From Rhodobacterales bacterium (GTDB lineage: Bacteria; Pseudomonadota; Alphaproteobacteria; Rhodobacterales; Rhodobacteraceae), in the NCBI GenBank assembly GCA_038233815.1, contig JBBSVE010000001.1, positions 7,341-71,340 on the forward strand: a stretch of 64,000 nt of DNA, given 5' to 3'. Under the pieces are notes generated by a model that made no database searches, was not told where the DNA came from, and saw nothing but the letters and a program-made list of their open reading frames with translations. Each line of letters begins with the position of its first letter. The stretch's first letter is position 1. Positions 2,451 through 45,379 of the stretch are shown here, piece by piece. A program made the position numbers and the translations under genes.

Positions 2451-2738
2451 ATGATCATTCCCCACCCGCTTCTGGGTCCGCGCGACGCGCAGGAATTCAC
2501 TTACATGGGCGACGAGAGCCTGATCGACCGGCCCGACTGGCAGGCCCCGGATGCGAACGAGTTGTTCCATGACTATCTCTACCTGCGCGACAATCCGGCG
2601 GGTCTGCACCGCGAGCTCTGGTATCACGAGCAGGGCGACCGGAGCTGGCTCGTCGTCACCCGCAACACGGTCACGCATGAGGTGATCTCCGCCGAACTCG
2701 CCCGCGATGTGGCGCGCGCAAAGGGACGCAGCCGATGA
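2451..2738 (+). CDS. soxD: sarcosine oxidase delta-subunit family protein (MgdB-like), cysteine-free
   Basis: 95 aa in the canonical position between the beta and alpha subunits. Delta-family motifs are present (FTYMGDESLIDRP, YLRDNPAG.HRE.W.H..G). Its stop overlaps the next start (ATGA at 2735-2738). Confidence 0.85.
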   Translation: MIIPHPLLGPRDAQEFTYMGDESLIDRPDWQAPDANELFHDYLYLRDNPAGLHRELWYHEQGDRSWLVVTRNTVTHEVISAELARDVARAKGRSR

Positions 2739-5689
2739 GCCCGAGCAACCGGATCGAAGGCGGCCTGATCGACCGCGCGCGCAGCGTCAGTTTCCGCTTC
2801 GACGGCCGGAGCTACACGGGCTTCGGGGGCGATACGCTGGCCTCCGCGCTGCTCGCCAACGGGGTCCGCCTGATGGGCCGGTCGTTCAAGTATCACCGTC
2901 CACGCGGCCCCCTCACCGCAGGGTCGGAAGAGCCGAACGCGCTGGTGGAGCTGCGCACCGGCGCGCGTCAGGAGCCGAACACCCGTGCCACCGTCGCGGA
3001 GCTGTTCGACGGTCTGGACGCGCGGAGCCAGAACCATGTGGGACCGCTGTCTTTCGACATGCTGGCGGTGAACGATCTGCTGTCGCCGTTCTTTGCCGCG
3101 GGGTTCTATTACAAGACCTTCATGTGGCCGAAAGCCTTCTGGGAAAAGCTCTACGAGCCGATGATCCGCCATGCCGCGGGCCTCGGCCGCCTGACGGGCG
3201 AGGATGATCCCGACCTCTACGACAAGGGCTTCCTGCACTGCGATCTGCTCATCATCGGGGCCGGGCCTACGGGTCTTGCCGCCGCTTTGACGGCGGGTCG
3301 GGCGGGTGCCGACGTGATCCTCGCCGACGAGGATTTCCTGCTCGGCGGACGGCTCAACGCGGAGACGCACGGGCTGGGCGCCATGTCCGGCGCCGACTGG
3401 GCGAGGGCGACGCTGGCGGAACTGGCAAGCCTGCCCAACGTCCGCGTGATGGCGCGCACCACGGTCATCGGGGCGATGGACCACGGCATCTTCGGCGCGC
3501 TGGAGCGCAACGCCGACCACCTCGCCACACCCGGTCCGGGCAAGCCCCGCCAGACGCTGTGGCGGATCTACACAAAGCGCAGCCTGCTCTGCGCCGGGGC
3601 GATCGAGCGGCCCATCGCGTTCCGGAACAACGACCGTCCGGGCATCATGCTCGGCTCCGCGATCCGCAGCTATGCCAACCGCTGGGCCGCCCTTCCGGGG
3701 CGCGAGGTGGCGATCTTCACCAACAACGACGACGGCCATCGGACGGCCGACGACCTTGTCGCCAAGGGCGTCCATATCGCGGCGGTGATCGACAGCCGCG
3801 CCGATGCGCCGGATTCCAAGCGTTACGAGGTGCTGAAAGGTGCCGTCGTCACGGATACGGCGGGGCGACTGGGCCTCAGCTCTGTTTCGGTGCGGATGGC
3901 GGGGGGGGAGACGCGGCACATTCCCTGCCTTGCCCTTGGTGTCTCCGGCGGGTGGAACCCGAACGTCCATCTCACCTGCCACCAGCGCGGGCGTCCGGTC
4001 TGGGACGCCGATCTTGCGGCCTTTGTTCCGGGCGGCACGCTTCCGCCGGGGATGTTGGTGGCGGGGGCATCAAAGGGCATCCTCTCCACCGCCGGCGCGC
4101 TGTCGTCTGGTGTTGAGGCCGCCATTCAGGTGCTCGACGGCCTTGGCATCGCCGCCAGATCCGTGGACCTGCCGGAGGCGGAGGATGCGCCGGTGCGGAT
4201 CACGCCGCTGTTCCACGTCCCGGGCAAGGGCCGTGCGTGGGTCGACCAGCAAAACGACGTGACGGTGAAGGATATCAAGCTCTCCCATCAGGAAGGCTAC
4301 ATCTCCGTCGAGCATCTCAAACGCTACACGACGCTCGGGATGGCCACCGATCAGGGCAAGACGGCGAATGTCACCGGCCTCGCCGTGATGGCGGAGATGA
4401 CCGGCAAATCCATCCCCGAGACCGGCACAACGATCTACCGCCCGCCTTATACGCCGGTGCCGATCGCCGCCTTCGCAGGCCGGTCGGCGGGCAAGGATTT
4501 CCGCCCCGTCCGCCTGCCGCCGAGCCACCATTTTGCCACCGAACGCGGCGCCGTCTTCGTCGAGGCCGGAATGTGGCTGCGCGCGCAGTGGTTCACGCGC
4601 GACGGCGAGACGACCTGGCGTCAGTCCGTCGACCGCGAGGTTCTGGCCACGCGCAAGTCCGTCGGCATCTGCGACGTGACGACGCTCGGCAAGATCGACG
4701 TGCAGGGCGTGGATGCTGCTGATTTCCTCAACCGCGTCTATGCCAACCCGTTCGCCAAGCTGGCCGTCGGCAAGATCCGCTACGGAATCATGCTGCGCGA
4801 GGACGGCATCGTCATGGATGACGGCACCACCGCGCGGCTGGCGGAGGATCATTTCGTCCTGACGACGACCACCGCCAATGCCGTGGGCGTCTATCGCCAC
4901 ATGGAGTTCTGTCGCCAGTGCCTCTGGCCCGATCTTGACGTGCAGATCATTTCCACCACCGAGGCGTGGGCGCAGTATTCGGTAGCGGGGCCGAACGCGC
5001 GCAGGCTGTTGCAAAAGATCGTCGACCCCGCCTGCGACATCTCCAACGAGGCGTTTCCGTACATGGGATGCGGCGAGATCACCGTCTGCGGCGGGCTTCG
5101 CGCAAGGCTCTTCCGGATCTCCTTCTCCGGCGAGCTGGCGTTCGAGATCGCAGTGCCGACGCGCTACGGCGACGCGCTCGTGCGGCGCATGATGGAGGCT
5201 GGGGCACAGTTCGACGCGGTGATCTACGGCACCGAGGCGCTCGGCGTGATGCGGATCGAGAAAGGCCATGCGGCGGGCAACGAGCTGAACGGCACGACGA
5301 GCGCCGTGAACCTCGGGATGGGCGGCATGGTTTCGAAGAAGAAGGACTCCATCGGCTCCACCCTGTCGGAGCGCGAGGGGATGAACCGCAAGGACGAGTT
5401 CGGCCTTGTGGGCTTCCGCCCGGTCGATCCCGCGGACAGGTTCGAATCCGGCTCCCATCTGATCGTGCGGGAAGAGGAGGCGACGATCGCCAACGATCAG
5501 GGCTATCTCACCTCCGTCGCCTTCTCTCCGAACCTCGGCTACATGATCGGCCTCGGATTCCTGAAGAATGGCGCGGCCCGCAAGGGCGAGGTCCTGCGTG
5601 CCGTGAACCCGGTGCAGAATGCCGAGACGCTGGTCGAGGTGGTCAGCGCCCATTTCATCGATCCCGAGGGGGAGCGTCTTCGTGCATGA
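2735..5689 (+). CDS. soxA: sarcosine oxidase alpha-subunit family protein (MgdC-like)
   Basis: 984 aa. N-terminal SFRFDGRSYTGFGGDTLASALLANGVRLMGRSFKYHRPRG, a GAGPTGLAAAL dinucleotide fold, and a C-terminal GcvT-like folate-binding region. Confidence 0.92.
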   Translation: MSPSNRIEGGLIDRARSVSFRFDGRSYTGFGGDTLASALLANGVRLMGRSFKYHRPRGPLTAGSEEPNALVELRTGARQEPNTRATVAELFDGLDARSQNHVGPLSFDMLAVNDLLSPFFAAGFYYKTFMWPKAFWEKLYEPMIRHAAGLGRLTGEDDPDLYDKGFLHCDLLIIGAGPTGLAAALTAGRAGADVILADEDFLLGGRLNAETHGLGAMSGADWARATLAELASLPNVRVMARTTVIGAMDHGIFGALERNADHLATPGPGKPRQTLWRIYTKRSLLCAGAIERPIAFRNNDRPGIMLGSAIRSYANRWAALPGREVAIFTNNDDGHRTADDLVAKGVHIAAVIDSRADAPDSKRYEVLKGAVVTDTAGRLGLSSVSVRMAGGETRHIPCLALGVSGGWNPNVHLTCHQRGRPVWDADLAAFVPGGTLPPGMLVAGASKGILSTAGALSSGVEAAIQVLDGLGIAARSVDLPEAEDAPVRITPLFHVPGKGRAWVDQQNDVTVKDIKLSHQEGYISVEHLKRYTTLGMATDQGKTANVTGLAVMAEMTGKSIPETGTTIYRPPYTPVPIAAFAGRSAGKDFRPVRLPPSHHFATERGAVFVEAGMWLRAQWFTRDGETTWRQSVDREVLATRKSVGICDVTTLGKIDVQGVDAADFLNRVYANPFAKLAVGKIRYGIMLREDGIVMDDGTTARLAEDHFVLTTTTANAVGVYRHMEFCRQCLWPDLDVQIISTTEAWAQYSVAGPNARRLLQKIVDPACDISNEAFPYMGCGEITVCGGLRARLFRISFSGELAFEIAVPTRYGDALVRRMMEAGAQFDAVIYGTEALGVMRIEKGHAAGNELNGTTSAVNLGMGGMVSKKKDSIGSTLSEREGMNRKDEFGLVGFRPVDPADRFESGSHLIVREEEATIANDQGYLTSVAFSPNLGYMIGLGFLKNGAARKGEVLRAVNPVQNAETLVEVVSAHFIDPEGERLRA

Positions 5690-6248
5690 CCTGAAAAGCC
5701 TGACCCCGCTTGGCGCCGCGGCGCCGAGGGTCGACCGGATCGGCGCGGTGTCCATCGCCGAGGTGACGGACATGGCGCTGGCGTCGCTTTCCGCCCGGAG
5801 CGGGAAGGTGGAGGCGTTGGGGACGGCCATGACGGCCCTGACCGGTGCCAAGCTTCCCGAGCCGGGGACATGGGTGGACGGCGCGCCTTGGTCGGTGATC
5901 TGGACCGGACCGGAGCAGTGGTTCGTCGAGGCGCCCTTCGCCAGCCATGAGGACATCTCCCGCGCGCTGAAGGACGCGGTGGGGGAGGCGGCCTCCGTCA
6001 CCGAACAGACCGACGGCTGGGTCCGGTTCGATCTGGAAGGCGCAGGAACCGTTGACATGCTGGAGCGGCTCTGCGCCGCCCCGTCCCGGCGGATGGAGGC
6101 GGGAATGGCCACCCGCACCGTGATCGAGCATATGGGGTGTCTCGTCATCTGCCGTGCTGCGGCCGAGCGGTTCAGCATCCTCGCCCCCCGGTCCTACGCG
6201 CGGTCGCTGCATTATGGGCTGACCGGCGCCGCGCGCTCTATCGCCTGA
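5682..6248 (+). CDS. soxG: sarcosine oxidase gamma-subunit family protein (MgdD-like)
   Basis: Fourth gene of the conserved B-D-A-G order. GTG at 5682 overlaps the soxA stop (GTGCATGA). The track ORF's upstream extension from 5619 lies inside soxA. Confidence 0.8.
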   Translation: MHDLKSLTPLGAAAPRVDRIGAVSIAEVTDMALASLSARSGKVEALGTAMTALTGAKLPEPGTWVDGAPWSVIWTGPEQWFVEAPFASHEDISRALKDAVGEAASVTEQTDGWVRFDLEGAGTVDMLERLCAAPSRRMEAGMATRTVIEHMGCLVICRAAAERFSILAPRSYARSLHYGLTGAARSIA

Positions 6249-11884: not shown

Positions 11885-11958
11885 ATCCTGAGCCTGTGTG
11901 CTTCGGCTGGCGGACCAGAGCGCCCATTCGGCCGACACCAGAGAGCCCACGCGCTGCT

Positions 11959-11987
11959 TTGTCAAATATTTCTTTGAGGAAATAATT
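11959..11987 (+). promoter_or_regulatory. candidate mgsA promoter (TTGTCA-N16-AATAAT) with embedded inverted repeat operator
   Basis: This is the only AT-rich patch in the 294-bp divergent dmmD/mgsA spacer. -35 TTGTCA is at 11959-11964 and -10 AATAAT at 11981-11986. An imperfect inverted repeat AAATATTTC-N6-GAAATAATT (8/9) spans the spacer. Confidence 0.35.
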
Positions 11988-12056
11988 ATTCCCTTATTGT
12001 TGCCGGACGCTGCGCCGACTGCTAGCGTAAGCCATCCTCATGCAGGGAATCGAGAT

Positions 12057-18814: not shown

Positions 18815-18888
18815 TGGAGCGGGTGAAGGGAATCGAACCCTCGTCATCAGCTTGGGAAGCTGCTTCTCTACCATTGAGATACACCCGC
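18815..18888 (-). tRNA. tRNA-Gly (anticodon CCC)
   Basis: Reverse complement is GCGGGTGTATCTCAATGGTAGAGAAGCAGCTTCCCAAGCTGATGACGAGGGTTCGATTCCCTTCACCCGCTCCA. It folds into a cloverleaf with acceptor GCGGGTG/CACCCGC, anticodon loop TTCCCAA, T-loop GGTTCGATTCC and an encoded CCA. Near-identical in layout to E. coli glyU. Confidence 0.93.
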
Positions 18889-25611: not shown

Positions 25612-26574
25612 TTACCGCCGGGCCAGCGGGTGACGGGTGAGCACGAGGTCGCGCAGATGCGCGTCGAGAACGTGGGTATAGATCTCGGTCGTCGCGAGGT
25701 CCGCGTGACCCAGCAGCGTCTGGATCACCCGCAGGTCCGCGCCACCGGCCAGCAGATGCGTGGCGAAGGCGTGGCGCAGCGTGTGCGGCGTCACCCGTGC
25801 CGGGTCGAGCCCGGCACGGATCGCCACCTGCTTGATCAGCACGAAGAGATGCTGGCGCGTCACATGGCCCGTAATCCCCCGTCCGGGAAAGAGATGCTTC
25901 GAGGGTGCGCGCCCCGCCGTCACGGTCTCCGCCTCCGCCCGGTCGCGGTCCGCCAGCCACAGACCCAGTGCGGCGCGGGCGGGCGATGATAGCGGCACCA
26001 TCCGTTCCCTACCGCCCTTGCCGCGCACGAGGATCATCGCGGGCGCGCCGCGCGCCGCCGCGACCGGTAGCTCAACCAACTCGGACACGCGCATCCCAGT
26101 GGCATAGAGGAGTTCCAGCAGGCAGCGGTTGCGCACCCTGTCGGCCGCGTCGCCCATAGTTTCCACGGCCGAGAGCATTGCCTCCACCTCCGCCAGCTCC
26201 AGCGTCTGCGGCAGGCTCTTGGCGCGCCCCGGACCCTTCAGGCGCAGCGCAGGATTGTCAGCGCGCCAGCCCTCCTCCACTGCGAAGCGGTAAAGTTGGC
26301 GGATCGAGGACAGCCGGCGCGCGCGGGTCGCCTTCGACAGCCCATGCGCCTCGCAGTGGACGAGGTAATCCTCCACATCAGACCGCGAGGCCTGTGCGAA
26401 ACCGCTGCCCCTGCGGGAAAGCCACAGGGCGACGTCGGACAGATCGCGCCCGTAGGCGAGCTGGGTGTTGCGCGCGGCCCCACGCTCGGCCGACTGCGCC
26501 TCCAGAAACGCAGAGATCCAGCGCGCCGCCGTGGTGTCCGGGGCAGGGGGGGCGTCATCCCCCGGCCCGGTCAT
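25612..26574 (-). CDS. xerD: site-specific tyrosine recombinase XerD
   Basis: SAM-like N-domain and catalytic domain with R...HTLRHAFATHLLAGGADLRVIQTLLGHADLATTEIYTHV (RHRY set). Classic alphaproteobacterial position divergent from aroK-aroB. Confidence 0.8.
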   Translation of the reverse strand: MTGPGDDAPPAPDTTAARWISAFLEAQSAERGAARNTQLAYGRDLSDVALWLSRRGSGFAQASRSDVEDYLVHCEAHGLSKATRARRLSSIRQLYRFAVEEGWRADNPALRLKGPGRAKSLPQTLELAEVEAMLSAVETMGDAADRVRNRCLLELLYATGMRVSELVELPVAAARGAPAMILVRGKGGRERMVPLSSPARAALGLWLADRDRAEAETVTAGRAPSKHLFPGRGITGHVTRQHLFVLIKQVAIRAGLDPARVTPHTLRHAFATHLLAGGADLRVIQTLLGHADLATTEIYTHVLDAHLRDLVLTRHPLARR

Positions 26575-28118
26575 CCGCGCCGCTCCAGCACCATGAGTTG
26601 CAGCGCGGTGCGGCGGGCGACAGACTCCAGCCCGATGCGGCGCAGGAGCGTCAGCCCTTCGGTCACGCCACGCACATCGCCTTCGGTGCCGGTGGCGATC
26701 CGGTCCATGGCGTCGAGCACCGCCTCACCGATGCGCTTCTGGTCCAGCAGGGCCGCCAGATCGGCGGGCAGGGTTGCGTCGCCGAATGCGGCGGCGATCG
26801 CGCGGGCCATGCCGTCGGGGACCGGAACGCCCACCAGATCGCCGCGCGCGAGGCCGGACAGGAACCGTTCCTCGTCGTCCACCGGGGTCCGCGCCCGCGC
26901 CGCAGTCTCGTAGAGCGGAGAGATCAATGCCACGCGAAAGGCCACCGCAGATTCGCGCGCGGGCAGGTCCGGTCGCAACAATCGTGCGGCGAAGAGGCGC
27001 GCGAACGGGGCCTCCGTTTCCGCCTCCTTCATCGCGCCCCACGCCGGGGGCAAGGCCGAGGCTATCGCCTCCGCCTTGCCCGAACGCGCCGCTGCATCGA
27101 GCCGTTGAAAGGCAGCAATCCGGTCCCAGATGCCGCCCGAGGCCGCCGGTTCGCGCGCGGTCAGGATCGCCTCCATCACGCTGGGGTCCAGATCGCCGGC
27201 CCGTGCCAACCGCTCCACCGCCTCGCACTGCGCTTTCCAGCCCGCGGTATCGCGCAGGTCGATATGCGAAAAGGCCAGCGGCAGCGTCGCCGTCGGCGGC
27301 GCCTCGCCCGAGGCGTCGAGCATGCGCCATACCAGCGGCGTGATCCGGGGCGGCGGCAACAGGTCGTCGCCCTCCTCCGCCAGATCGGGATCGAGAAACC
27401 GCGAGACGAGGCGGTCTTCCGACGGGGTCACGTAATCCAGCGCCTGCGCCATACGAAGGGTCAGGGCCGCCGCATTCCAGTCCCCGGTGCGCGCAAGGCA
27501 GAAAATACGCGCGGGATAGGTCGGCGACAGGTCCGGGGTCGCGCGCAGAATCTCGCAGGCATGATCCTCGGTCCCGAGCAGCAGCGCCACGTCGAATGCA
27601 CGGCGAAAGAGCGTCGGTGTCATCGGTCCCGACGCATCGAGCAGCGCCTGTGCCTGATCGAGAGCGCCGAGTTCCAAGAGCTTGTCGATCCGCGCCAGCA
27701 GCAGCGTGCTGCCATTGGCCGAATCGGCCGGTGCCCGGGCGCGGGCCAGAAGTACCGAGATCAGCAGATCCTGCAGTGCCGGCACCGCACCCGGCCGCTC
27801 CCGCGTGATCCGGGCCGCGATTTCCGCCGTCCGCCCGATGCCCCAGAGGTCGCGCGGCAGACCCGTCTGCGCCGGGACGAGCACGCCCGAGCCGTCCGGT
27901 GCCGGCCCGTCGAGCGTCGACGTCACGACGTCCTGCGGCAGCGCCTTGCCTTCGGGCGCCACCGCTTTTTCCGATCCGCGGGTGCGGACCTTGGAACCCG
28001 CCGGCATCACCACCGATTTGGAAAGCCAGTCGATTGCACTCAGCGGTTGCTGGGCGCCGAGCGGCGTCGCGAGCACCAGCGCCGCACAGACCAAGATAGG
28101 CAGCCGCCTATCGGGCAT
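26571..28118 (-). CDS. secreted alpha-helical repeat protein of unknown function
   Basis: Signal peptide MPDRRLPILVCAALVLATPLGAQQ. Ala/Leu-rich helical composition. Its stop overlaps the xerD start (ATGA at 26571-26574). No catalytic motif recognised. Confidence 0.65.
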   Translation of the reverse strand: MPDRRLPILVCAALVLATPLGAQQPLSAIDWLSKSVVMPAGSKVRTRGSEKAVAPEGKALPQDVVTSTLDGPAPDGSGVLVPAQTGLPRDLWGIGRTAEIAARITRERPGAVPALQDLLISVLLARARAPADSANGSTLLLARIDKLLELGALDQAQALLDASGPMTPTLFRRAFDVALLLGTEDHACEILRATPDLSPTYPARIFCLARTGDWNAAALTLRMAQALDYVTPSEDRLVSRFLDPDLAEEGDDLLPPPRITPLVWRMLDASGEAPPTATLPLAFSHIDLRDTAGWKAQCEAVERLARAGDLDPSVMEAILTAREPAASGGIWDRIAAFQRLDAAARSGKAEAIASALPPAWGAMKEAETEAPFARLFAARLLRPDLPARESAVAFRVALISPLYETAARARTPVDDEERFLSGLARGDLVGVPVPDGMARAIAAAFGDATLPADLAALLDQKRIGEAVLDAMDRIATGTEGDVRGVTEGLTLLRRIGLESVARRTALQLMVLERRG

Positions 28119-30138: not shown

Positions 30139-30213
30139 TGGCTGGGGCGGGAGGGATCGAACCTCCGTATGTCGGTACCAAAAACCGATGCCTTACCGCT
30201 TGGCTACGCCCCA
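30139..30213 (-). tRNA. tRNA-Gln (anticodon UUG)
   Basis: Reverse complement is TGGGGCGTAGCCAAGCGGTAAGGCATCGGTTTTTGGTACCGACATACGGAGGTTCGATCCCTCCCGCCCCAGCCA. Acceptor TGGGGCG/CGCCCCA, anticodon stem TCGGT/ACCGA with loop TTTTGGT, and an encoded CCA. Confidence 0.93.
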
Positions 30214-30317: not shown

Positions 30318-31493
30318 ATGCAGGTCGATGTCGTCATCCTCGGGGCCGGTGCCGCGGGCCTTTTCGCGGCCATCGAGGCCGGTCGGCGCGGGCGGTCCGT
30401 CCTGCTCGTCGACCATGCAAAACGCGCGGGCGAGAAGATCCGCATCTCCGGCGGCGGGCGCTGCAACTTCACCAACACCGGGATCGTGACGGATCGGTTC
30501 CTGTCGCGCAATCCCCGGTTCGCGCTCTCCGCGCTCCGCCGCTACACCGACCGCGATTTCCTCGCGCGGGTGGAGGCGCGTGGCATCGCTTGGCACGAGA
30601 AGGCGCTGGGGCAGCTCTTTTGCGACGGACCCTCGACGCAGATCGTGGCGATGCTTTTGACGGAGATCGAGGAAGCGGGCGTAATGCTCTGGCTGTCCAC
30701 CGAAATCCAGAGCGTCGCGGCGGAGGGGAAGGGGTTCGCCGTTGCCACCTCCCGCGGCGTGGTTCGCGCGCAGGCTTGCGTCGTGGCGACCGGCGGCAAG
30801 TCGATCCCGAAAATGGGCGCCACCGCCTTCGGCTACCGGATCGCCGCGCAGTTCGGCGTGCCGGTGGTGGAGACGCGCCCGGCACTGGTGCCGCTGACCT
30901 TCGCCGCGCAGGATCTGGCGGGGCTGGCACCGCTCGCCGGTCTGTCGGTCGAAGGTGGCGTGACCTGCGACGGCACACGGTTCGACGAGGGGCTGCTTTT
31001 TACCCATCGCGGGCTATCGGGGCCTGCGGTGCTCCAGATCTCCTCCTACTGGCGCGAGGGAGGGGCGATCACGGTGGATCTGGCGCGCGGGATGGAGGCC
31101 GAGGCGGCCCTGCGGACCCAACGCGGCAAGGCCGGACGCATCGCGGTCCGCACGGCACTTGCAGGGTTCATGCCAGAACGGCTGGCGCGACATGTGGAGG
31201 ACATCTCGGGACTTACGGGAAACCTCGCCGACCAGAGCAATGCCGATCTCGCGCGGCTGGCGGGCCTCGTCCATGGCTGGCAGATGCGGCCGGTGGGCAC
31301 CGAAGGCTATCGCACCGCCGAGGTGACGCTGGGCGGCGTCGATACCGACGCGCTGGATGCGCGCACGATGGAGGCCACGGCGGTGCCGGGGCTGCATTTC
31401 GTGGGCGAGGTGGTGGACGTCACCGGCTGGCTCGGCGGATACAACTTTCAATGGGCCTGGTCGTCGGGTTGGGCGGCGGGTCAGGCCGTCTGA
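30318..31493 (+). CDS. NAD(P)/FAD-dependent oxidoreductase, HI0933/BaiN (YhiN)-like flavoprotein
   Basis: MQVDVVILGAGAAGLFAAIEAGRRGRSVLLVDHAKRAGEKIRISGGGRCNFTN is the family-typical N-terminus. C-terminal GEVVDVTGWLGGYNFQWAWSSG. Confidence 0.85.
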   Translation: MQVDVVILGAGAAGLFAAIEAGRRGRSVLLVDHAKRAGEKIRISGGGRCNFTNTGIVTDRFLSRNPRFALSALRRYTDRDFLARVEARGIAWHEKALGQLFCDGPSTQIVAMLLTEIEEAGVMLWLSTEIQSVAAEGKGFAVATSRGVVRAQACVVATGGKSIPKMGATAFGYRIAAQFGVPVVETRPALVPLTFAAQDLAGLAPLAGLSVEGGVTCDGTRFDEGLLFTHRGLSGPAVLQISSYWREGGAITVDLARGMEAEAALRTQRGKAGRIAVRTALAGFMPERLARHVEDISGLTGNLADQSNADLARLAGLVHGWQMRPVGTEGYRTAEVTLGGVDTDALDARTMEATAVPGLHFVGEVVDVTGWLGGYNFQWAWSSGWAAGQAV

Positions 31494-31506
31494 TCCTCCC
31501 ATCTGA

Positions 31507-31534
31507 ATGTCTGATAATCTATATTATGTAATCG
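31507..31534. other. dif-like XerC/XerD chromosome dimer resolution site (candidate)
   Basis: 28-mer AATGTCTGATAA-TCTATA-TTATGTAATC(G). The right arm TTATGTAA matches the conserved XerD-arm core of E. coli (TTATGTTAAAT) and B. subtilis (TTATGTAAACT) dif. The left arm ends in GATAA. There is ATAAT/ATTAT dyad symmetry around a 6-bp centre. It sits in an AT-rich 51-bp spacer between convergent genes and coincides with the GGGNAGGG polarity switch. Confidence 0.55.
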
Positions 31535-31544
31535 GTACGTATCC

Positions 31545-33356
31545 TCAGAACGGCCAGAAGATCAGCAGCAGCGGCATGGCAACGGCAACAATCAACGCCT
31601 CCAGCGGCAGGCCCACGCGCCAGTAATCGCCGAACCGGAAGCCGCTGGGCCCGAGGATCAGCGTGTTGTTCTGGTGTCCGATGGGTGTGAGGAACGCGCA
31701 GGATGCGCCGACCGCCACGGCCATCAGGAAGCTGTCGGGATTGGCCTTCAGCGCGCTCGCGGTCTGGATCGCGATCGGACACATCACGGCGGCGGTGGCT
31801 GCGTTGTTCATCACGTCCGACAGGAACATCGTGACGACGAGGATCAGAAGCAGCGCCACCACCGCATTGCCCTGTGCCAGCGTCTGCATCAGGAACTGCG
31901 CCACAAGCGCCGCGGTGCCCGTCGTCTCCATTGCGCCCGCCACGGGAAAGAGCGCGCCCAGAAGCACGACGACGGGCCAGTCGACGCTTTGGTAGACGTT
32001 GCGCAGCGGGATCGTGCCGAAGACCATCGCTGCCACGACGCCACCGGTGAACGCCACCGCAGCCGGCGCAAGCCCCAGTGCCGCGACCGCGATGGCGGCC
32101 AGCATGATACCCACCGCAAGCACGGCTTTCCGACGGTTCGGCACTGAAATATCGCGCTCCGCCAGTGGCACGCAGCCTTGGGCGGAGGCGAATTCCCCCA
32201 GCGCCTCGGGCCGGCCCTGCAACAGCAGCACGTCGCCCGCCTTGAAGCGGGTGTGACGCATCCGGGCACGGGTGTCGCGACCGCGCCGGGATAGCGCCAT
32301 CAGGGAAATGCTGTAGCGTGTGCGGAGCGTCAGCTCCGACGCGGAGCGCCCGATCAGATCGGCACCGGGCAGCACCACGACCTCGCGCAGCAGCGGCCCG
32401 TCATCGGGGTCCTCGGCGTCGTCCGCTTCCGGTTCCGGGGTTTTGGGCGCAATCTTTTCGACCTGCCTCAGCCCTTCGGCCTCCAGGCCAAGCGCGTCGA
32501 GCCCTTCATGCAACTCCTTCACGTCTGCCTCGAGAACGAGAATATCGTTGGCGAATATCCTGCGTCCACCATGCGGCGCTGACATCCGCACGCCGTTGCG
32601 GATCAGCGCCACGACCTGCGCCTCGGCGGACGAAAGCACCGCCTCGATCTGGCGCAGGGTCATGCCGACGACGCGGCCGCCTTCCTGTGCCGTGGCTTCG
32701 GTCAGGTAGCTGCCGGGGTCGAAATCCTCCGCCCGCGACGGATTGCGGACCGGGACAAGTCGCCAGCCGATAAGCACCAGAAACAGGATACCCGTGACCG
32801 CAACCACGCCGCCCACGGGGAGGAACGCGAACATCCCGAAGCCCTGCCCCGCGTCCGAGTTCGCCCGGAAGCCCGACACGATCAGGTTCGGCGGCGTGCC
32901 GATCAGCGTCGTCATGCCGCCGAGGATGGTCCCGAAGGCCAGCGGCATGAGCATCCGCCCCGGCGTGGTGCCGAGCTTGCGCGCCATCCGCACCGCCAGC
33001 GGCATCAGGAGCGCCAGCGCGCCCACGTTGTTCATCACGGCAGACAGCGCCGCGCCGAGCCCCACCACCGACGACATGCTTTTCAGCCGCCCGCCACGCT
33101 CCGGGATCACCCGCCGCGCAATCAGGTCGATCGCCCCCGAGGTCTGCAGCGAGCGGCTGAGGACGAGGACGCAGGCCACCGTGATGACCGCCGGATTGCC
33201 GAACCCGTCAAACGCCTTGCCCGCCGGGATCACGCCCGCCGCGACCCCGGCGAGAAGGGCCGCCAGCGACACGATGTCATGCCGGAACCGGCCCCAGACG
33301 AAAAGCGCGACCGTTGCCAGCAGGATCCCGAGGATGATATAGTTCTGCGCCGTCAT
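31545..33356 (-). CDS. SLC13/DASS-family permease with central tandem TrkA-C (RCK_C) domains
   Basis: 603 aa. Multi-TM N- and C-halves flank a soluble insert (GGRVVGMTLRQIE...ILVLEADVKEL; LIGRSASEL...GDVLLLQGRPEAL), typical of the citrate-transporter-like / TrkA-C family. Confidence 0.8.
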   Translation of the reverse strand: MTAQNYIILGILLATVALFVWGRFRHDIVSLAALLAGVAAGVIPAGKAFDGFGNPAVITVACVLVLSRSLQTSGAIDLIARRVIPERGGRLKSMSSVVGLGAALSAVMNNVGALALLMPLAVRMARKLGTTPGRMLMPLAFGTILGGMTTLIGTPPNLIVSGFRANSDAGQGFGMFAFLPVGGVVAVTGILFLVLIGWRLVPVRNPSRAEDFDPGSYLTEATAQEGGRVVGMTLRQIEAVLSSAEAQVVALIRNGVRMSAPHGGRRIFANDILVLEADVKELHEGLDALGLEAEGLRQVEKIAPKTPEPEADDAEDPDDGPLLREVVVLPGADLIGRSASELTLRTRYSISLMALSRRGRDTRARMRHTRFKAGDVLLLQGRPEALGEFASAQGCVPLAERDISVPNRRKAVLAVGIMLAAIAVAALGLAPAAVAFTGGVVAAMVFGTIPLRNVYQSVDWPVVVLLGALFPVAGAMETTGTAALVAQFLMQTLAQGNAVVALLLILVVTMFLSDVMNNAATAAVMCPIAIQTASALKANPDSFLMAVAVGASCAFLTPIGHQNNTLILGPSGFRFGDYWRVGLPLEALIVAVAMPLLLIFWPF

Positions 33357-33499: not shown

Positions 33500-34399
33500 T
33501 CAGTTGCCGCGTGTCTTGGCCACTTCCGCCGCGAAGTCTTCCTTTTCCTTCTCGATCCCCTCGCCCACCGCCATCCGCACGAAGCCGGTGACGGTCACGC
33601 CCGCCTCCTTTGCCGCCTGTTCCACGGTGATGTCAGGATTCATAACGAACTTCTGGCCCATCAGCGTGCTTTCCTCGAGAAACTTCTTCATCCGGCCGGG
33701 GATGATGTTGTTCTCGATCACGTTCGCAGGCTTCGGCTTGGCAGAGGCGCTGTTCTCTTCCATCGCCTTCTGGGTCTGGACGGTGCGCTCGCGCTCCATC
33801 ACCGCGGGGTCGAGATCGGCCTCCGACAGCGCCATCGGCGCGGTTGCCGCGATATGCATCGCTATCTGGCGCGCGATGCCCGTGTCGGTGCCCTTGATCG
33901 CCACCAGCACACCGATCTTGCCCATGCCGTCGGCGGCAGCGTTGTGGACGTAGGAGGCGACGCTGTCGCCCTCCACCACCGCCATCCGGCGCAGGGTCAG
34001 GTTCTCCCCGATCCGGGCGATGTTGGCGGTCATCGTCTCGGCGACCGTCTCCTCGCCCATCGGGGCCGCGCGGAGCGCCTCGATGTCGTCCACGGTCAGG
34101 GCCACCGCAGTGACGTTCTGCACAAGCTTCTGGAAATCGGCGTTCTTCGCCACGAAATCGGTCTCGGAGTTGATCTCGACCGCAACCCCCCTGCCCGCGC
34201 GCACGGCGACGCCGACGAGGCCTTCGGCAGCCACCCGGTCGGCCTTTTTCGCAGCCTTGGCGAGGCCTTTGGTGCGCAACCAGTCGACGGCCGCCTCCAT
34301 GTCGCCGTCCGTCTCGGTCAGTGCCTTCTTCGCGTCCATCATTCCGGCGCCGGTGCTTTCACGCAGCTCCTTCACCATCTGGGCCGTGATCGTCGCCAT
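33500..34399 (-). CDS. tsf: translation elongation factor Ts
   Basis: [45 protein letters not shown] is the canonical EF-Ts N-terminus. The start at 34399 is preceded by GGAGAG. The track ORF is over-extended. Confidence 0.95.
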
Positions 34400-34468
34400 C
34401 GTGGCTCTCCTTCGTCTCATCGGGAAACGCCCGGCAGGACCGTGCCTGCCGGGCAAGGATCTGGATCG

Positions 34469-35239
34469 TCAGGCCGTCGCGGGCTCTTCGGCCAGCGCCT
34501 CCTCGACGGGCGCCTCCTCCAGGGCACCGACGTCGATGCCCGCGGCCCCCATCTGCGCCGACATGCCGTCCAGCGCCGCGCGCGAGATCAGGTCGCAATA
34601 GAGCGCGATCGCCCGCGCCGCATCGTCATTGCCCGGAATGATGTATTCGATGTCGCGGGGCGAGCAGTTCGTGTCCACGATGCCCACGACCGGAATGCCA
34701 AGCTTCTTGGCCTCGAGGATCGCCAGATCCTCCTTGCCCACGTCGATCACGACCAGCAGATCGGGAACGCCGCCCATCTCCCGAATGCCGCCGAGCGAGG
34801 CCTGCAGCTTGCCCTGCTCGCGCTCCATGTTGAGGCGCTCCTTCTTCGTCATGCCCTCGGCACCCTGCCCCATCAGCTCATCGAGCTGTTTCAGACGCTG
34901 GATCGAGTTGGAGACGGTCTTCCAGTTCGTCAGCGTGCCACCGAGCCAGCGGTGGTTCATGTAGAACTGCGCCGACTTCTCGGCCGCCTCGGCCACGGCC
35001 TTCTGCGCCTGCCGCTTGGTGCCGACGAAGAGGATACGCCCGCCCTTGGCGACGGTGTCGCGCACGACCTTGAGCGCCTGATCCAGCAAAGGAACGGTCT
35101 GCGTCAGATCGACGATATGGATGCCGTTGCGCTCGCCATAGATGTATTCGCCCATCTTGGGGTTCCAGCGCGCGGTCTGGTGGCCGTAGTGAACGCCCGC
35201 TTCAAGAAGCTGACGCATGGTGAACTCGGGAAGAGCCAT
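34469..35239 (-). CDS. rpsB: 30S ribosomal protein S2
   Basis: [45 protein letters not shown] is the canonical S2 N-terminus. Start at 35239. Confidence 0.95.
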
Positions 35240-35490
35240 GCCTTTTCCTTTTCCGGTTTGATCCTCGGCAGCACCGTCTTCAGACCTTTCGGTCCAACCG
35301 GCGGACGGATGCGGGATGTCTCCCCGATCCACCCAGGCGCTGCCTGTGAAGTCCGCGGCTCATACGCGTCCGGTGCGCCGACCGCAAGCCTCGATCGCCG
35401 GGCTGCCGGACGGTCCGGGAAATCGACCGGCAGCCATTGTGGCCGCGCAGCGGGCCGCTTACCTTTGACGCGTTCCCCGAGGAGGCCTCG

Positions 35491-36436: not shown

Positions 36437-38272
36437 ATGAGCCTGAGAAAGCGGGTTGATGCGCCAAGGGCATCGCTCGGGGCCGCCATTGCCCTCTTTC
36501 TGGGCGTTTTCTGCGGTCTGGCGCAGGCGGGGCCCGAAAATGGCATAGCTATGTATGGCAACCCCGCGTTACCACACGATTTTGTGTCCTTTCCCTATGC
36601 CAATCCCGACGCTCCGAAGGGCGGACGCATCGTGCTGGGGGAAACGGGGGGATTCGACTCGCTCAATCCCTTCATCCTGAAAGGCCGCGCCCCCGCAGAG
36701 CTTTCCGCGCTGACGGTGGAGACGCTGATGGTGCGCTCCATCGACGAGCCCTTCACGCTCTACGGCGCCCTCGCCGAATCGGTGGAGACGGATGCCGCGA
36801 GGAGCTACGTCGCCTTCACGCTGAGGGACGGCGCGCGGTTCTCCGACGGCAAGCCGGTGACGGTGGAGGATGTGCTCTGGTCCTTCCGCACGCTGGGCAC
36901 GGCGGGCAGCCCCCCGAATCCGCGCTATTCCGCGACCTGGTCCAAGGTGGCGCGGGCCGAGCAGACCGGCCCCCGCACGCTGCGTATCACTTTCACGGAG
37001 CCGGATCGGGAGTTGCCGCTGATCATGGCCGTGCGCCCGGTGCTGGAAAAGGCGCAGTGGGGGGGTCGGGATTTCGCAGCGGGCGGGATGGAGGCGCCCA
37101 TCGGCTCCGGCCCCTACGTCGTGGGCGCGTATGAGGCCGGGCGTTACATCACTTACGTCAAGAACCCTGACTGGTGGGGCAAGGATCTGCCGGTCAATCG
37201 CGGCCGCTGGAACTTCGACACGATCCGCACCGACTATTTCGGCGATGCGGACGTGATGTTCGAATCGTTCCGCGCCGGTGAGATCACCAGCTACCGGGAG
37301 AGCAATGCCGCGAAATGGGTGACGAACTACGATTTCCCCGCCGTCCGGTCTGGCACGATCGTGATGTCGGAGATCCCCCACCATCGCCCGTCCGGCATCG
37401 AGGGCTTCGTGATGAACACCCGTCGCCCGCTCTTCGCCGATTGGCAGGTGCGCGATGCGCTGATCCTCGCGTTCAATTCGGAACTGGCACAGAGGACGCT
37501 CGCGGGGGACGGGGCCCGGCGCATCCAGTCCTATTTCGGCAATTCGGACCTCGGCATGATGCCCGGAACGCCCGCGCCGGGTGCCGTTCGGGCGCTGCTG
37601 GCGCCCTACGCGGCGGACCTTATCCCCGGCGTGATGGAGGGTTACGCAGTGCCCGTGTCCGACGGCAGCCGCGCCAACCGCCGGAACCTGCGCGCGGCCA
37701 CGCGCGAACTGGCGGAGGCGGGCTGGACCAGCGCCGACGGCACGCTGCGGGACAGCCACGGCACGCCGTTCCGGTTCGAGATCCTGCTGACCAACGGTGC
37801 GGCGGAGACCGCCTCCATCGCCGCGATCTATGTCGATGCGCTGAAGCGGCTCGGGATCGAGGCGCGGATCACGACGGTCGATGCGGCCCAGATGAAGGCC
37901 CGGACCGACAGCTACGACTTCGACATGACCTACCTGATCCGCAACATGTCACTGTCGCCCGGCAACGAGCAGACGCTCTACTGGGGCTCGGACGGCGTCG
38001 CCTCTCCCGGCAGCCGCAACCTCATGGGGATGCATGTGCCCGCGGCGGAGGCGATCATTGCCCACATGCTCCGCGCCATCGACCGGGGCGATTTTGTGAC
38101 CTCGGTCAAGGCGCTGGACCGGATCCTGACGGCGGGGCGCTATGTGGTACCGTTCTGGTTCTCCACCGAAGGTCGGATCGCGCATGCGCGCACGCTGCAC
38201 TACCCCGACCGTATCCCGGTCTATGGCGACTGGCCCGGCTTTCAGCCCGATGTCTGGTGGTTCGCGCCCTGA
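36437..38272 (+). CDS. ABC transporter substrate-binding protein, family 5 (peptide/opine/microcin type, YejA-like)
   Basis: Signal peptide MSLRKRVDAPRASLGAAIALFLGVFCGLAQA and a roughly 580-aa SBP_bac_5-type body. GGAG precedes ATG 36437. The track ORF starts at 36356. Confidence 0.82.
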   Translation: MSLRKRVDAPRASLGAAIALFLGVFCGLAQAGPENGIAMYGNPALPHDFVSFPYANPDAPKGGRIVLGETGGFDSLNPFILKGRAPAELSALTVETLMVRSIDEPFTLYGALAESVETDAARSYVAFTLRDGARFSDGKPVTVEDVLWSFRTLGTAGSPPNPRYSATWSKVARAEQTGPRTLRITFTEPDRELPLIMAVRPVLEKAQWGGRDFAAGGMEAPIGSGPYVVGAYEAGRYITYVKNPDWWGKDLPVNRGRWNFDTIRTDYFGDADVMFESFRAGEITSYRESNAAKWVTNYDFPAVRSGTIVMSEIPHHRPSGIEGFVMNTRRPLFADWQVRDALILAFNSELAQRTLAGDGARRIQSYFGNSDLGMMPGTPAPGAVRALLAPYAADLIPGVMEGYAVPVSDGSRANRRNLRAATRELAEAGWTSADGTLRDSHGTPFRFEILLTNGAAETASIAAIYVDALKRLGIEARITTVDAAQMKARTDSYDFDMTYLIRNMSLSPGNEQTLYWGSDGVASPGSRNLMGMHVPAAEAIIAHMLRAIDRGDFVTSVKALDRILTAGRYVVPFWFSTEGRIAHARTLHYPDRIPVYGDWPGFQPDVWWFAP

Positions 38273-44371: not shown

Positions 44372-45379
44372 ATGAGCCTCACGATCCCGTCCGCCCCATT
44401 CCCCGCCGCCCGCTTCCGCCGTCTGCGCCGCACCGATGCGCTGCGCCGCTTGGCACAGGAAAACGTGCTGAGCGTCAACGACCTGATCTGGCCGGTCTTC
44501 GTGACCGAAGGCGAGCGGGTCAGCGATCCGGTCACCTCCATGCCCGGCGTGGCACGCCAGTCCATCGACAACGTGGTCCGCCGGGCGGAGGAGGCGGCAT
44601 CGCTCGGCATCCCCGCGATCTGCCTCTTTCCCTACACCGATCCCGACCTCAGGACGGAAACCTGCGAGGAGGCGTGGAACCCCGAGAACCTCATCAACCG
44701 CGCGATCCGGGCGATCAAGGCCCGCGTGCCGGAGGTTGCGGTGATGACCGACATCGCGCTCGACCCCTATAATGCGCTGGGCCATGACGGGCTGGTGCAG
44801 GACGGGCTGATCGTGAACGACGAGACGGTGGAGGCGCTGGTCCGCATGGCGGTGGCGCAGGCGGACGCAGGCGCCGACATCCTCGGCCCCTCCGACATGA
44901 TGGACGGCCGCATCGGGGCGATGCGCAGCGCGCTGGAGGCTGCGGGCCACCGGGACGTAGCGATCCTGAGCTATGCGGCGAAATACGCCTCTGCCTTTTA
45001 CGGTCCGTTCCGGGATGCGGTGGGGGCGGGCACGCGGCTTGTCGGGGACAAAAAGACCTACCAGATGAACCCCGCCAATTCAGACGAGGCGCTGCGGCTT
45101 GTTGCGCGCGATCTGGCGGAGGGGGCTGACATGGTGATGGTGAAGCCCGGGATGCCCTATCTCGACATCGTGCGGCGGGTGAAGGATCGCTTCGGCGCGC
45201 CGACCTCCGCCTATCAGGTGTCGGGCGAATATGCGATGTTGCGGGCGGCGGCGCAGAACGGCTGGATCGACGGCGAGCGCGCCATGGTTGAAAGCCTGAT
45301 CGCGTTTCGCCGGGCAGGGTGCGATGCAGTGCTGACCTATTTCGCCGCCGATATGGCGCGCCTTTTGCGCGACGGCTGA
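44372..45379 (+). CDS. hemB: porphobilinogen synthase (delta-aminolevulinate dehydratase), Asp-rich metal-site type
   Basis: MSLTIPSAPFPAARFRRLRRTDALRRL start. DIALDPYNALGHDG stands in place of the Cys-rich zinc motif. The active-site lysine region VMVKPG is present. Confidence 0.93.
   Translation: MSLTIPSAPFPAARFRRLRRTDALRRLAQENVLSVNDLIWPVFVTEGERVSDPVTSMPGVARQSIDNVVRRAEEAASLGIPAICLFPYTDPDLRTETCEEAWNPENLINRAIRAIKARVPEVAVMTDIALDPYNALGHDGLVQDGLIVNDETVEALVRMAVAQADAGADILGPSDMMDGRIGAMRSALEAAGHRDVAILSYAAKYASAFYGPFRDAVGAGTRLVGDKKTYQMNPANSDEALRLVARDLAEGADMVMVKPGMPYLDIVRRVKDRFGAPTSAYQVSGEYAMLRAAAQNGWIDGERAMVESLIAFRRAGCDAVLTYFAADMARLLRDG

Follow-up and report, generated by a model that had tools for sequence, protein, structure and literature searches.

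The 64-kb stretch of DNA analysed here (the window) raises the question of whether a short AT-rich sequence between two convergent genes is the site at which the chromosome dimers of its host are resolved. On the basis of sequence comparisons, we consider it very probable that the 28-bp sequence ATGTCTGATAATCTATATTATGTAATCG, located at 31507-31534 on the + strand, is the main-chromosome dif site of a Paracoccaceae (Rhodobacterales) bacterium, that is, the site of dimer resolution by XerC/XerD. This reading had been proposed in an earlier note on the same DNA, and it is supported here by a published dif matrix, by the polarity of KOPS-type motifs and by the sites found in seven relatives.

The sequence occupies most of an intergenic gap of 51 bp (31494-31544) that separates two convergent stop codons. 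To its left is the gene of an aminoacetone-oxidase-family flavoprotein (30318-31493, + strand; TIGR00275, 379 bits), whose stop codon (31491-31493) lies 13 bp before the site; to its right is the gene of a DASS/SLC13-type anion transporter (31545-33356, − strand), whose stop codon lies 10 bp after it. The earlier note had placed a dif-like sequence in this gap, between the flavoprotein stop at 31493 and the SLC13 stop at 31545, and the letters confirm it. The site can be divided into a left arm, ATGTCTGATAA (31507-31517, + strand), which is a putative XerC half-site by homology to E. coli dif, a 6-bp centre, TCTATA (31518-31523, + strand), as the putative strand-exchange region, and a right arm, TTATGTAATCG (31524-31534, + strand), as the putative XerD half-site. 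The 11-6-11 layout is thereby satisfied by 31507-31534. C5, A8, T9, A10 and A11 of the dif consensus were all found in the left arm, and the invariant T18, T19, A20, T21 and G22 as well as A25 in the right arm; all 10 of the invariant or nearly invariant dif positions (A8, T9, A10 and A11; T18, T19, A20, T21 and G22; A25) were kept. The TCG at positions 26-28 departs from the majority bases of the pan-proteobacterial matrix; the ATC at positions 25-27 is common to the window site, the dif of chromosome 2 of Rhodobacter sphaeroides and the site of one of the relatives described below (L152). The interval 31507-31534 given in the earlier note is the right 28-mer and has the best matrix register, whereas the left arm written there, AATGTCTGATAA, contains 12 bases, includes 31506 and would give a 29-mer.

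The gap contains 63% A+T in a window of ~67% G+C. Measured over 28 bp, it ranks second in AT-richness within the window (79% A+T versus 82% at 11952-12000), and the other convergent gaps in the window measure 5 bp, 5 bp and 684 bp, the last with 34% A+T. The earlier note was right that no other convergent spacer is strongly AT-rich, because the richer spot at 11952-12000 is a divergent one. The latter, the AT-richest spot of the window, separates a GCV_T-family gene (− strand) from a cluster (+ strand) resembling that of the N-methylglutamate pathway (amidotransferase, GXGXG, glutamate-synthase-like and glutamine-synthetase-like genes), and probably acts as a promoter or regulatory region for both.

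The site was scored with the nucleotide frequencies of 161 proteobacterial dif sites (Table S2 of Carnoy & Roten 2009, PMC2731167), which were turned into a log-odds matrix against the base composition of the window. The published frequencies were used because Hamming distance to E. coli dif alone discriminated poorly: by this measure, a random site at 37918 did as well as dif. With the matrix, the + strand register of 31507-31534 scored 33.2 bits, against 21.6 bits for the reverse register; the difference of 11.6 bits agrees with the proposal that the XerC arm is on the left and the XerD arm on the right. The next independent position in the window reached 2.8 bits, and dif is thus unique within 64 kb. 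In 100 simulated 64-kb sequences, the best score per sequence was −1.3 ± 4.0 on average and 11.4 at the largest, and the accepted alphaproteobacterial dif sites in PMC2731167 scored 15-43 bits with the same matrix, a range that includes the window site. The exact tail probability at its score is 5e-12 per position, corresponding to ~7e-7 matches per window and ~4e-5 per 4-Mb genome. In addition, TTATGTAA occurs a single time on both strands of the 64 kb, and GATAA-N6-TTATGTAA with at most two mismatches was found once in the window (0.06 expected), so the suggestion that a correctly spaced AT-rich dyad of this kind is unlikely to arise by chance was well founded.

The position of the site was examined with GGGNAGGG, the FtsK-orienting motif (KOPS) of E. 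coli. Between 1474 and 30733, 13 copies on the + strand point rightward to dif (starting at 1474, 8556, 14141, 17233, 18090, 19990, 20909, 21381, 25554, 26541, 26766, 29206 and 30726), and between 32842 and 62860, 14 copies on the − strand point leftward to it (low coordinates 32842, 34189, 34863, 38325, 39117, 47150, 47776, 48577, 50758, 51781, 58201, 61141, 62217 and 62853). The sole exception is a + strand copy at 45312, to the right of dif; no − strand copy was found to its left within the window. Altogether, 27 of the 28 copies are directed toward dif (13/13 on the left and 14/15 on the right; Fisher p=7.5e-7), which bears out the convergence of KOPS-type motifs that the earlier note had described. 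The motif is twice as frequent in the window as in simulated sequences (28 versus 13.8 ± 3.8), and its polarity changes inside the 2.1-kb interval 30726-32842, which holds dif. When all octamers were compared without any prior and with the pivot at dif, GGGCAGGG was the top skewed one (17 toward and 1 away), an octamer that shows such polarity in most Proteobacteria (PMC3384302).

GC skew also bears on this position. Within the window, both the cumulative G−C maximum and the best single change point were observed at 31850, 316 bp from dif. However, the support is weaker than the earlier note implied, because a second peak within the window, of 311 at 18830, comes close to that of 330 at 31850, and because GC3 skew does not differ significantly between the left and right sides of dif (p=0.09). 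Co-directionality with a terminus at dif holds for only 60% of the coding bases, a weak strand bias. The site very probably lies at the junction of two replication arms; given the weak skew statistics, the switch of the polarity motif is the main and strong positional evidence for this, and GC skew is just consistent with it.

A candidate recombinase was found nearby. The gene at 25612-26574 (− strand), 4.9 kb from dif, encodes a tyrosine recombinase of 320 aa that scored 324 bits with NF001399, above the cutoff, as well as 299 bits with the XerD model and 250 bits with the XerC model; the equivalog cutoff of 330 for XerD was not reached. Its best match among solved structures is E. coli XerD (1A0P, E=4e-55). 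By these model scores, the product is a Xer-type recombinase closer to XerD than to XerC, and the xerD gene said to lie about 5 kb away is in place. Of the 43 genes predicted in the window, none was recognized as ftsK, xerC or any second tyrosine recombinase. The xerD gene follows a 515-aa ORF, and both are divergent from aroK-aroB. This ORF (26571-28118, − strand) begins with what resembles a signal peptide and matches nothing in Pfam or NCBIfam; the overlap of its stop with the start of xerD (ATGA) suggests that the two are probably co-transcribed. Two tRNA genes were observed in the window: tRNA-Gln(ttg) at 30139-30213 (− strand), between aroB and the flavoprotein gene and 1.3 kb from dif, and tRNA-Gly(ccc) at 18815-18888.

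On the other side of dif, the transporter gene is followed by tsf (33500-34456, − strand) and then by rpsB (34469-35332, − strand), so that dif lies 2.0 kb downstream of tsf in the window. The closest Tsf homologues were those of Pseudorhodobacter, Pararhodobacter, Cereibacter, Thioclava and Szabonella (~78-85%) and of one metagenome assembly (92%), in the Paracoccaceae/Rhodobacteraceae, which assigns the host of the window to the Paracoccaceae. We scanned the tsf neighbourhoods of relatives with the same dif matrix and counted only loci that extended far enough. The seven Paracoccaceae relatives were L152 (an alphaproteobacterial MAG, found via a DNA-pattern scan), L181, L184 (Cereibacter sphaeroides), L185, L186 (Thioclava), L187 (Pararhodobacter) and L188 (Szabonella). 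Each of them (7/7) contained one strong dif match 2.5-4.6 kb downstream of tsf, with scores of 25.9, 27.3, 25.6, 30.2, 40.5, 34.7 and 42.2 bits, respectively (range 25.6-42.2 bits). The 28-mers of the relatives are identical to the window site at 19-24 of 28 positions, the highest value being that of L152 (24/28), and TTATGTAATC of the right arm is the same in L152 and in the dif of R. sphaeroides chromosome 2. Changes were observed mostly at positions 1-3, 13-16 and 26-28, with TCAGTA, TCAATA and TCTGTA as variants of the centre; such variability at the outer ends and in the centre of dif has been described by Carnoy & Roten (PMC2731167). In the loci of the seven relatives, 68 copies of GGGNAGGG are directed toward dif and 3 away from it. 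In L187 the site is inverted; in the other six relatives, its XerD arm is turned toward tsf.

The genes adjacent to dif vary by genome and include rpe, a sulfate permease gene, an aminotransferase gene, small ORFs and a prophage. Compared with L181, its closest relative, the window shows ~80% nucleotide homology throughout mfd...rpsB-tsf-transporter; this homology stops at 31543, on the border of the dif gap, so that synteny breaks exactly at dif. Across genera, considering the window and the seven relatives, dif has been kept within 2-5 kb of the rpsB-tsf operon, and the other side has been reshuffled.

The arms were also used as a search pattern. Scanning the genome collection for TCTGATAA-N6-TTATGTAATC gave 46 loci in many phyla (Acidobacteriota, Desulfobacteria, Rhodobacterales and others), among which only L152 was syntenic with the window. 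A metagenome scan for GTCTGATAAT-N4-ATTATGTAATC gave 14 matches, mostly with 37-57% GC and acidobacterial-type 28-mers, and none of them was homologous to the window. It was observed that members of Acidobacteriota (Pyrinomonadaceae/Blastocatellia) have a near-identical dif-type 28-mer, GCGTCTGATAATAGAGATTATGTAATC, in common, and that CCATCTGATAATCCACATTATGTAATCG is common to Desulfobacteria; these 28-mers were derived from L122, L125, L127, L128, L139, L145, L147, L155, L157, L159 and L163 together with the metagenome loci L167-L180. The arm cores of both are the same as in the Rhodobacterales site of the window. In a contig of a Firmicute (L137; Acutalibacteraceae, CAVDAL010000017.1), three dif-like 28-mers of the form G[CT]GTCTGATAATATAAATTATGTAATCC with a conserved 3' flank were found at 2706-6096, within 7.2 kb; these copies may be Xer-dependent modules or a repeat family.

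The alternative that survives best, although we consider it unlikely, is that 31507-31534 is a secondary Xer site, namely either a junction that a dif-integrating element (an IMEX or a filamentous prophage) left behind, or the site at which a secondary replicon (chromid) is resolved. It is well known that dif sites are integration targets of filamentous-phage-type elements, and such elements duplicate dif-like sites. An example was found in a relative, Szabonella alba (L188, JAESVN010000003.1, 14142-20351), in which ~6.2 kb of small genes, all on one strand, lie between the strong dif (42.2 bits) and a second, degenerate copy, TAATCCGATAATCAATAAATTGTAAAAT, that scores 18.9 bits. One of these genes encodes a filamentous-phage replication protein (REP_ORF2-G2P), and the segment probably represents an inovirus-type element that XerCD has inserted at dif. 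The identity of the arm cores with those of the dif of R. sphaeroides chromosome 2 would also fit a secondary replicon. However, no second dif-like sequence above 2.8 bits was present within ±31 kb of the window site, and no phage-like, integrase, plasmid or mobile-element genes adjoin it, its neighbours being housekeeping and metabolic genes; the junction of an integrated element is unlikely because of these two findings. A secondary replicon is unlikely because the window contains core chromosomal genes (rpsB, tsf, mfd, hemB, hflX, ntrYX, trkAH, aroKB, ispDF and dusB) and shares its gene order with the region around the main-chromosome dif of the relatives. That KOPS polarity and the skew maximum meet at the site also argues against both versions. 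With regard to viral sequences, the matches listed for viral contigs (IMG/VR) were mostly on AT-rich contigs; among them, L021, L055, L083, L092 and L072 (55-58% GC) carry Rhodobacterales-like dif sequences (TTATCCGATAATCCCCATTATGTAATGT; ACATCCGATAATCACTATTATGTAATGT). These high-GC contigs may represent phages that integrate at dif, or else prophage predictions in which a host dif has been included.

Another possibility, which appears very unlikely, is that the sequence only resembles dif and acts in transcription within the convergent gap, as a bidirectional terminator or as the binding site of a regulator. Its location between convergent stop codons, its partly palindromic nature and the fact that the 71-nt region folds slightly better than shuffled sequences (z=−1.97) could be explained in this way. 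However, no terminator-like, promoter-like or RNA feature was detected in the 51-bp gap, the fold is unremarkable, and in relatives members of the same 28-mer family separate gene pairs that are quite different and in some cases not convergent. A stem of 5 bp that consists of A/T only and has no T-tract, together with such varied gene pairs, is a poor fit to a terminator or operator specific to these genes. The ends of the two genes were noticed to form an imperfect inverted repeat that encloses the dif gap (31485-31493, GCCGTCTGA, and 31545-31554, TCAGAACGGC); it makes up the outer stem of the predicted fold and may be a coincidence. Finally, although short AT-rich intergenic stretches do occur in GC-rich genomes, as at 11952-12000, a chance near-palindrome without function is hardly conceivable, since 7e-7 matches are expected per window at this score, since the KOPS switch falls at this very site (p=7.5e-7) and since its position is kept in relatives, and a chance origin of the 28-mer is statistically excluded.

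If the window site is the main-chromosome dif, its use can be envisaged by analogy with E. coli. After replication, septal FtsK would pump DNA, in a direction set by GGGNAGGG, until dif is reached. XerC would then occupy the left arm and XerD the right arm, and two sister dif sites would be brought into synapsis. Activated by FtsK, XerD would swap one pair of strands first, at the margin of the 6-bp TCTATA, and XerC would then swap the other, so that a chromosome dimer would be converted into two monomers. Protein binding, the cleavage positions, FtsK dependence and a single copy of dif per replicon are inferred here. Whether the placement of dif has a meaning of its own is a separate matter. 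Its proximity to rpsB-tsf, the distance of 4.9 kb to xerD and the squeeze between convergent genes, in a gap where no terminator was detected, might reflect a selected anchor of the terminus, or a coupling of local transcription, recombinase supply and use of dif; we regard this idea as unlikely, and the placement could equally be due to simple inheritance.

As a probable marker of the replication terminus and of the junction of the two arms, dif is useful for annotation, for the orientation of contigs and for the reading of strand biases in the window. It also predicts the point at which dif-integrating phages or islands would be inserted, as in the Szabonella relative. No new biology arises from the window dif itself.

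Comparison with known Xer sites helps to define what kind of site this is. The dif of E. coli, GGTGCGCATAA TGTATA TTATGTTAAAT, is an experimentally defined XerCD/FtsK site. The window site has in common with it the 11-6-11 layout, the inner-arm ATAA/TTATGT, the location at a junction of GGGNAGGG polarity and the presence of an XerD homologue (1A0P, E=4e-55). However, only 17 of 28 positions are identical, and the outer arm bases are unlike those of E. coli, which suggests that the recombinase-DNA contacts probably differ in detail. The likeness to E. coli and B. subtilis dif emphasized in the earlier note therefore holds for the conserved inner part and not for the rest. Plasmid Xer sites (cer, psi and pdif modules) and the attP sites of dif-mimicking phages have the same type of 28-bp core recognised by XerC/XerD; they often need accessory sequences and lie outside chromosomal polarity switches. 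Unlike these, the window site is surrounded by core chromosomal genes, coincides with a KOPS junction and has no mobile-element genes nearby.

Within the Alphaproteobacteria, the dif of Caulobacter crescentus has been studied experimentally (Jensen 2006, cited in PMC2731167). It comes from the same bacterial class and from the region of the terminus, and its right arm reads TTATGTAAAGT; it is identical to the window site at 15 of 28 positions, has an atypical left arm and scores 17.7 bits, compared with 33.2 bits for the window site, which is nearer to the general consensus. The exact 28-mer of the window is absent from the published dif lists searched, that of Kono et al. 2011 among them. Much closer counterparts are the dif sites predicted for R. 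(Cereibacter) sphaeroides 2.4.1, GAGTCGGATAATCTGTATTATGTATTCT on chromosome 1 and TTATCTGATAAGCAAGATTATGTAATCA on chromosome 2 (Carnoy & Roten 2009, PMC2731167), each of which is identical to the window site at 22 of 28 positions. The arm cores of the chromosome 2 site, TCTGATAA and TTATGTAATC, are the same as those of the window, and the centre of the chromosome 1 site, TCTGTA, is one base off TCTATA; all of these sites, including that of the window, are intergenic and near a skew maximum, which for the window is the maximum within its 64 kb. In the C. sphaeroides assembly, dif lies 2.5 kb downstream of tsf and beside rpe, in the same neighbourhood as in the window. On the other hand, the outer bases and the centre differ between the R. 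sphaeroides sites and that of the window, all of which are computational predictions. The genes on the side of the left arm are also different (those for the flavoprotein and tRNA-Gln, aroKB and xerD in the window; rpe, lipA and others in R. sphaeroides), as is the distance between xerD and dif (4.9 kb in the window versus ~60 kb in R. sphaeroides 2.4.1). As far as its sequence indicates, the window site is a standard chromosomal dif of the Rhodobacterales type, a type of site that has been predicted and catalogued for the order since 2009-2011.
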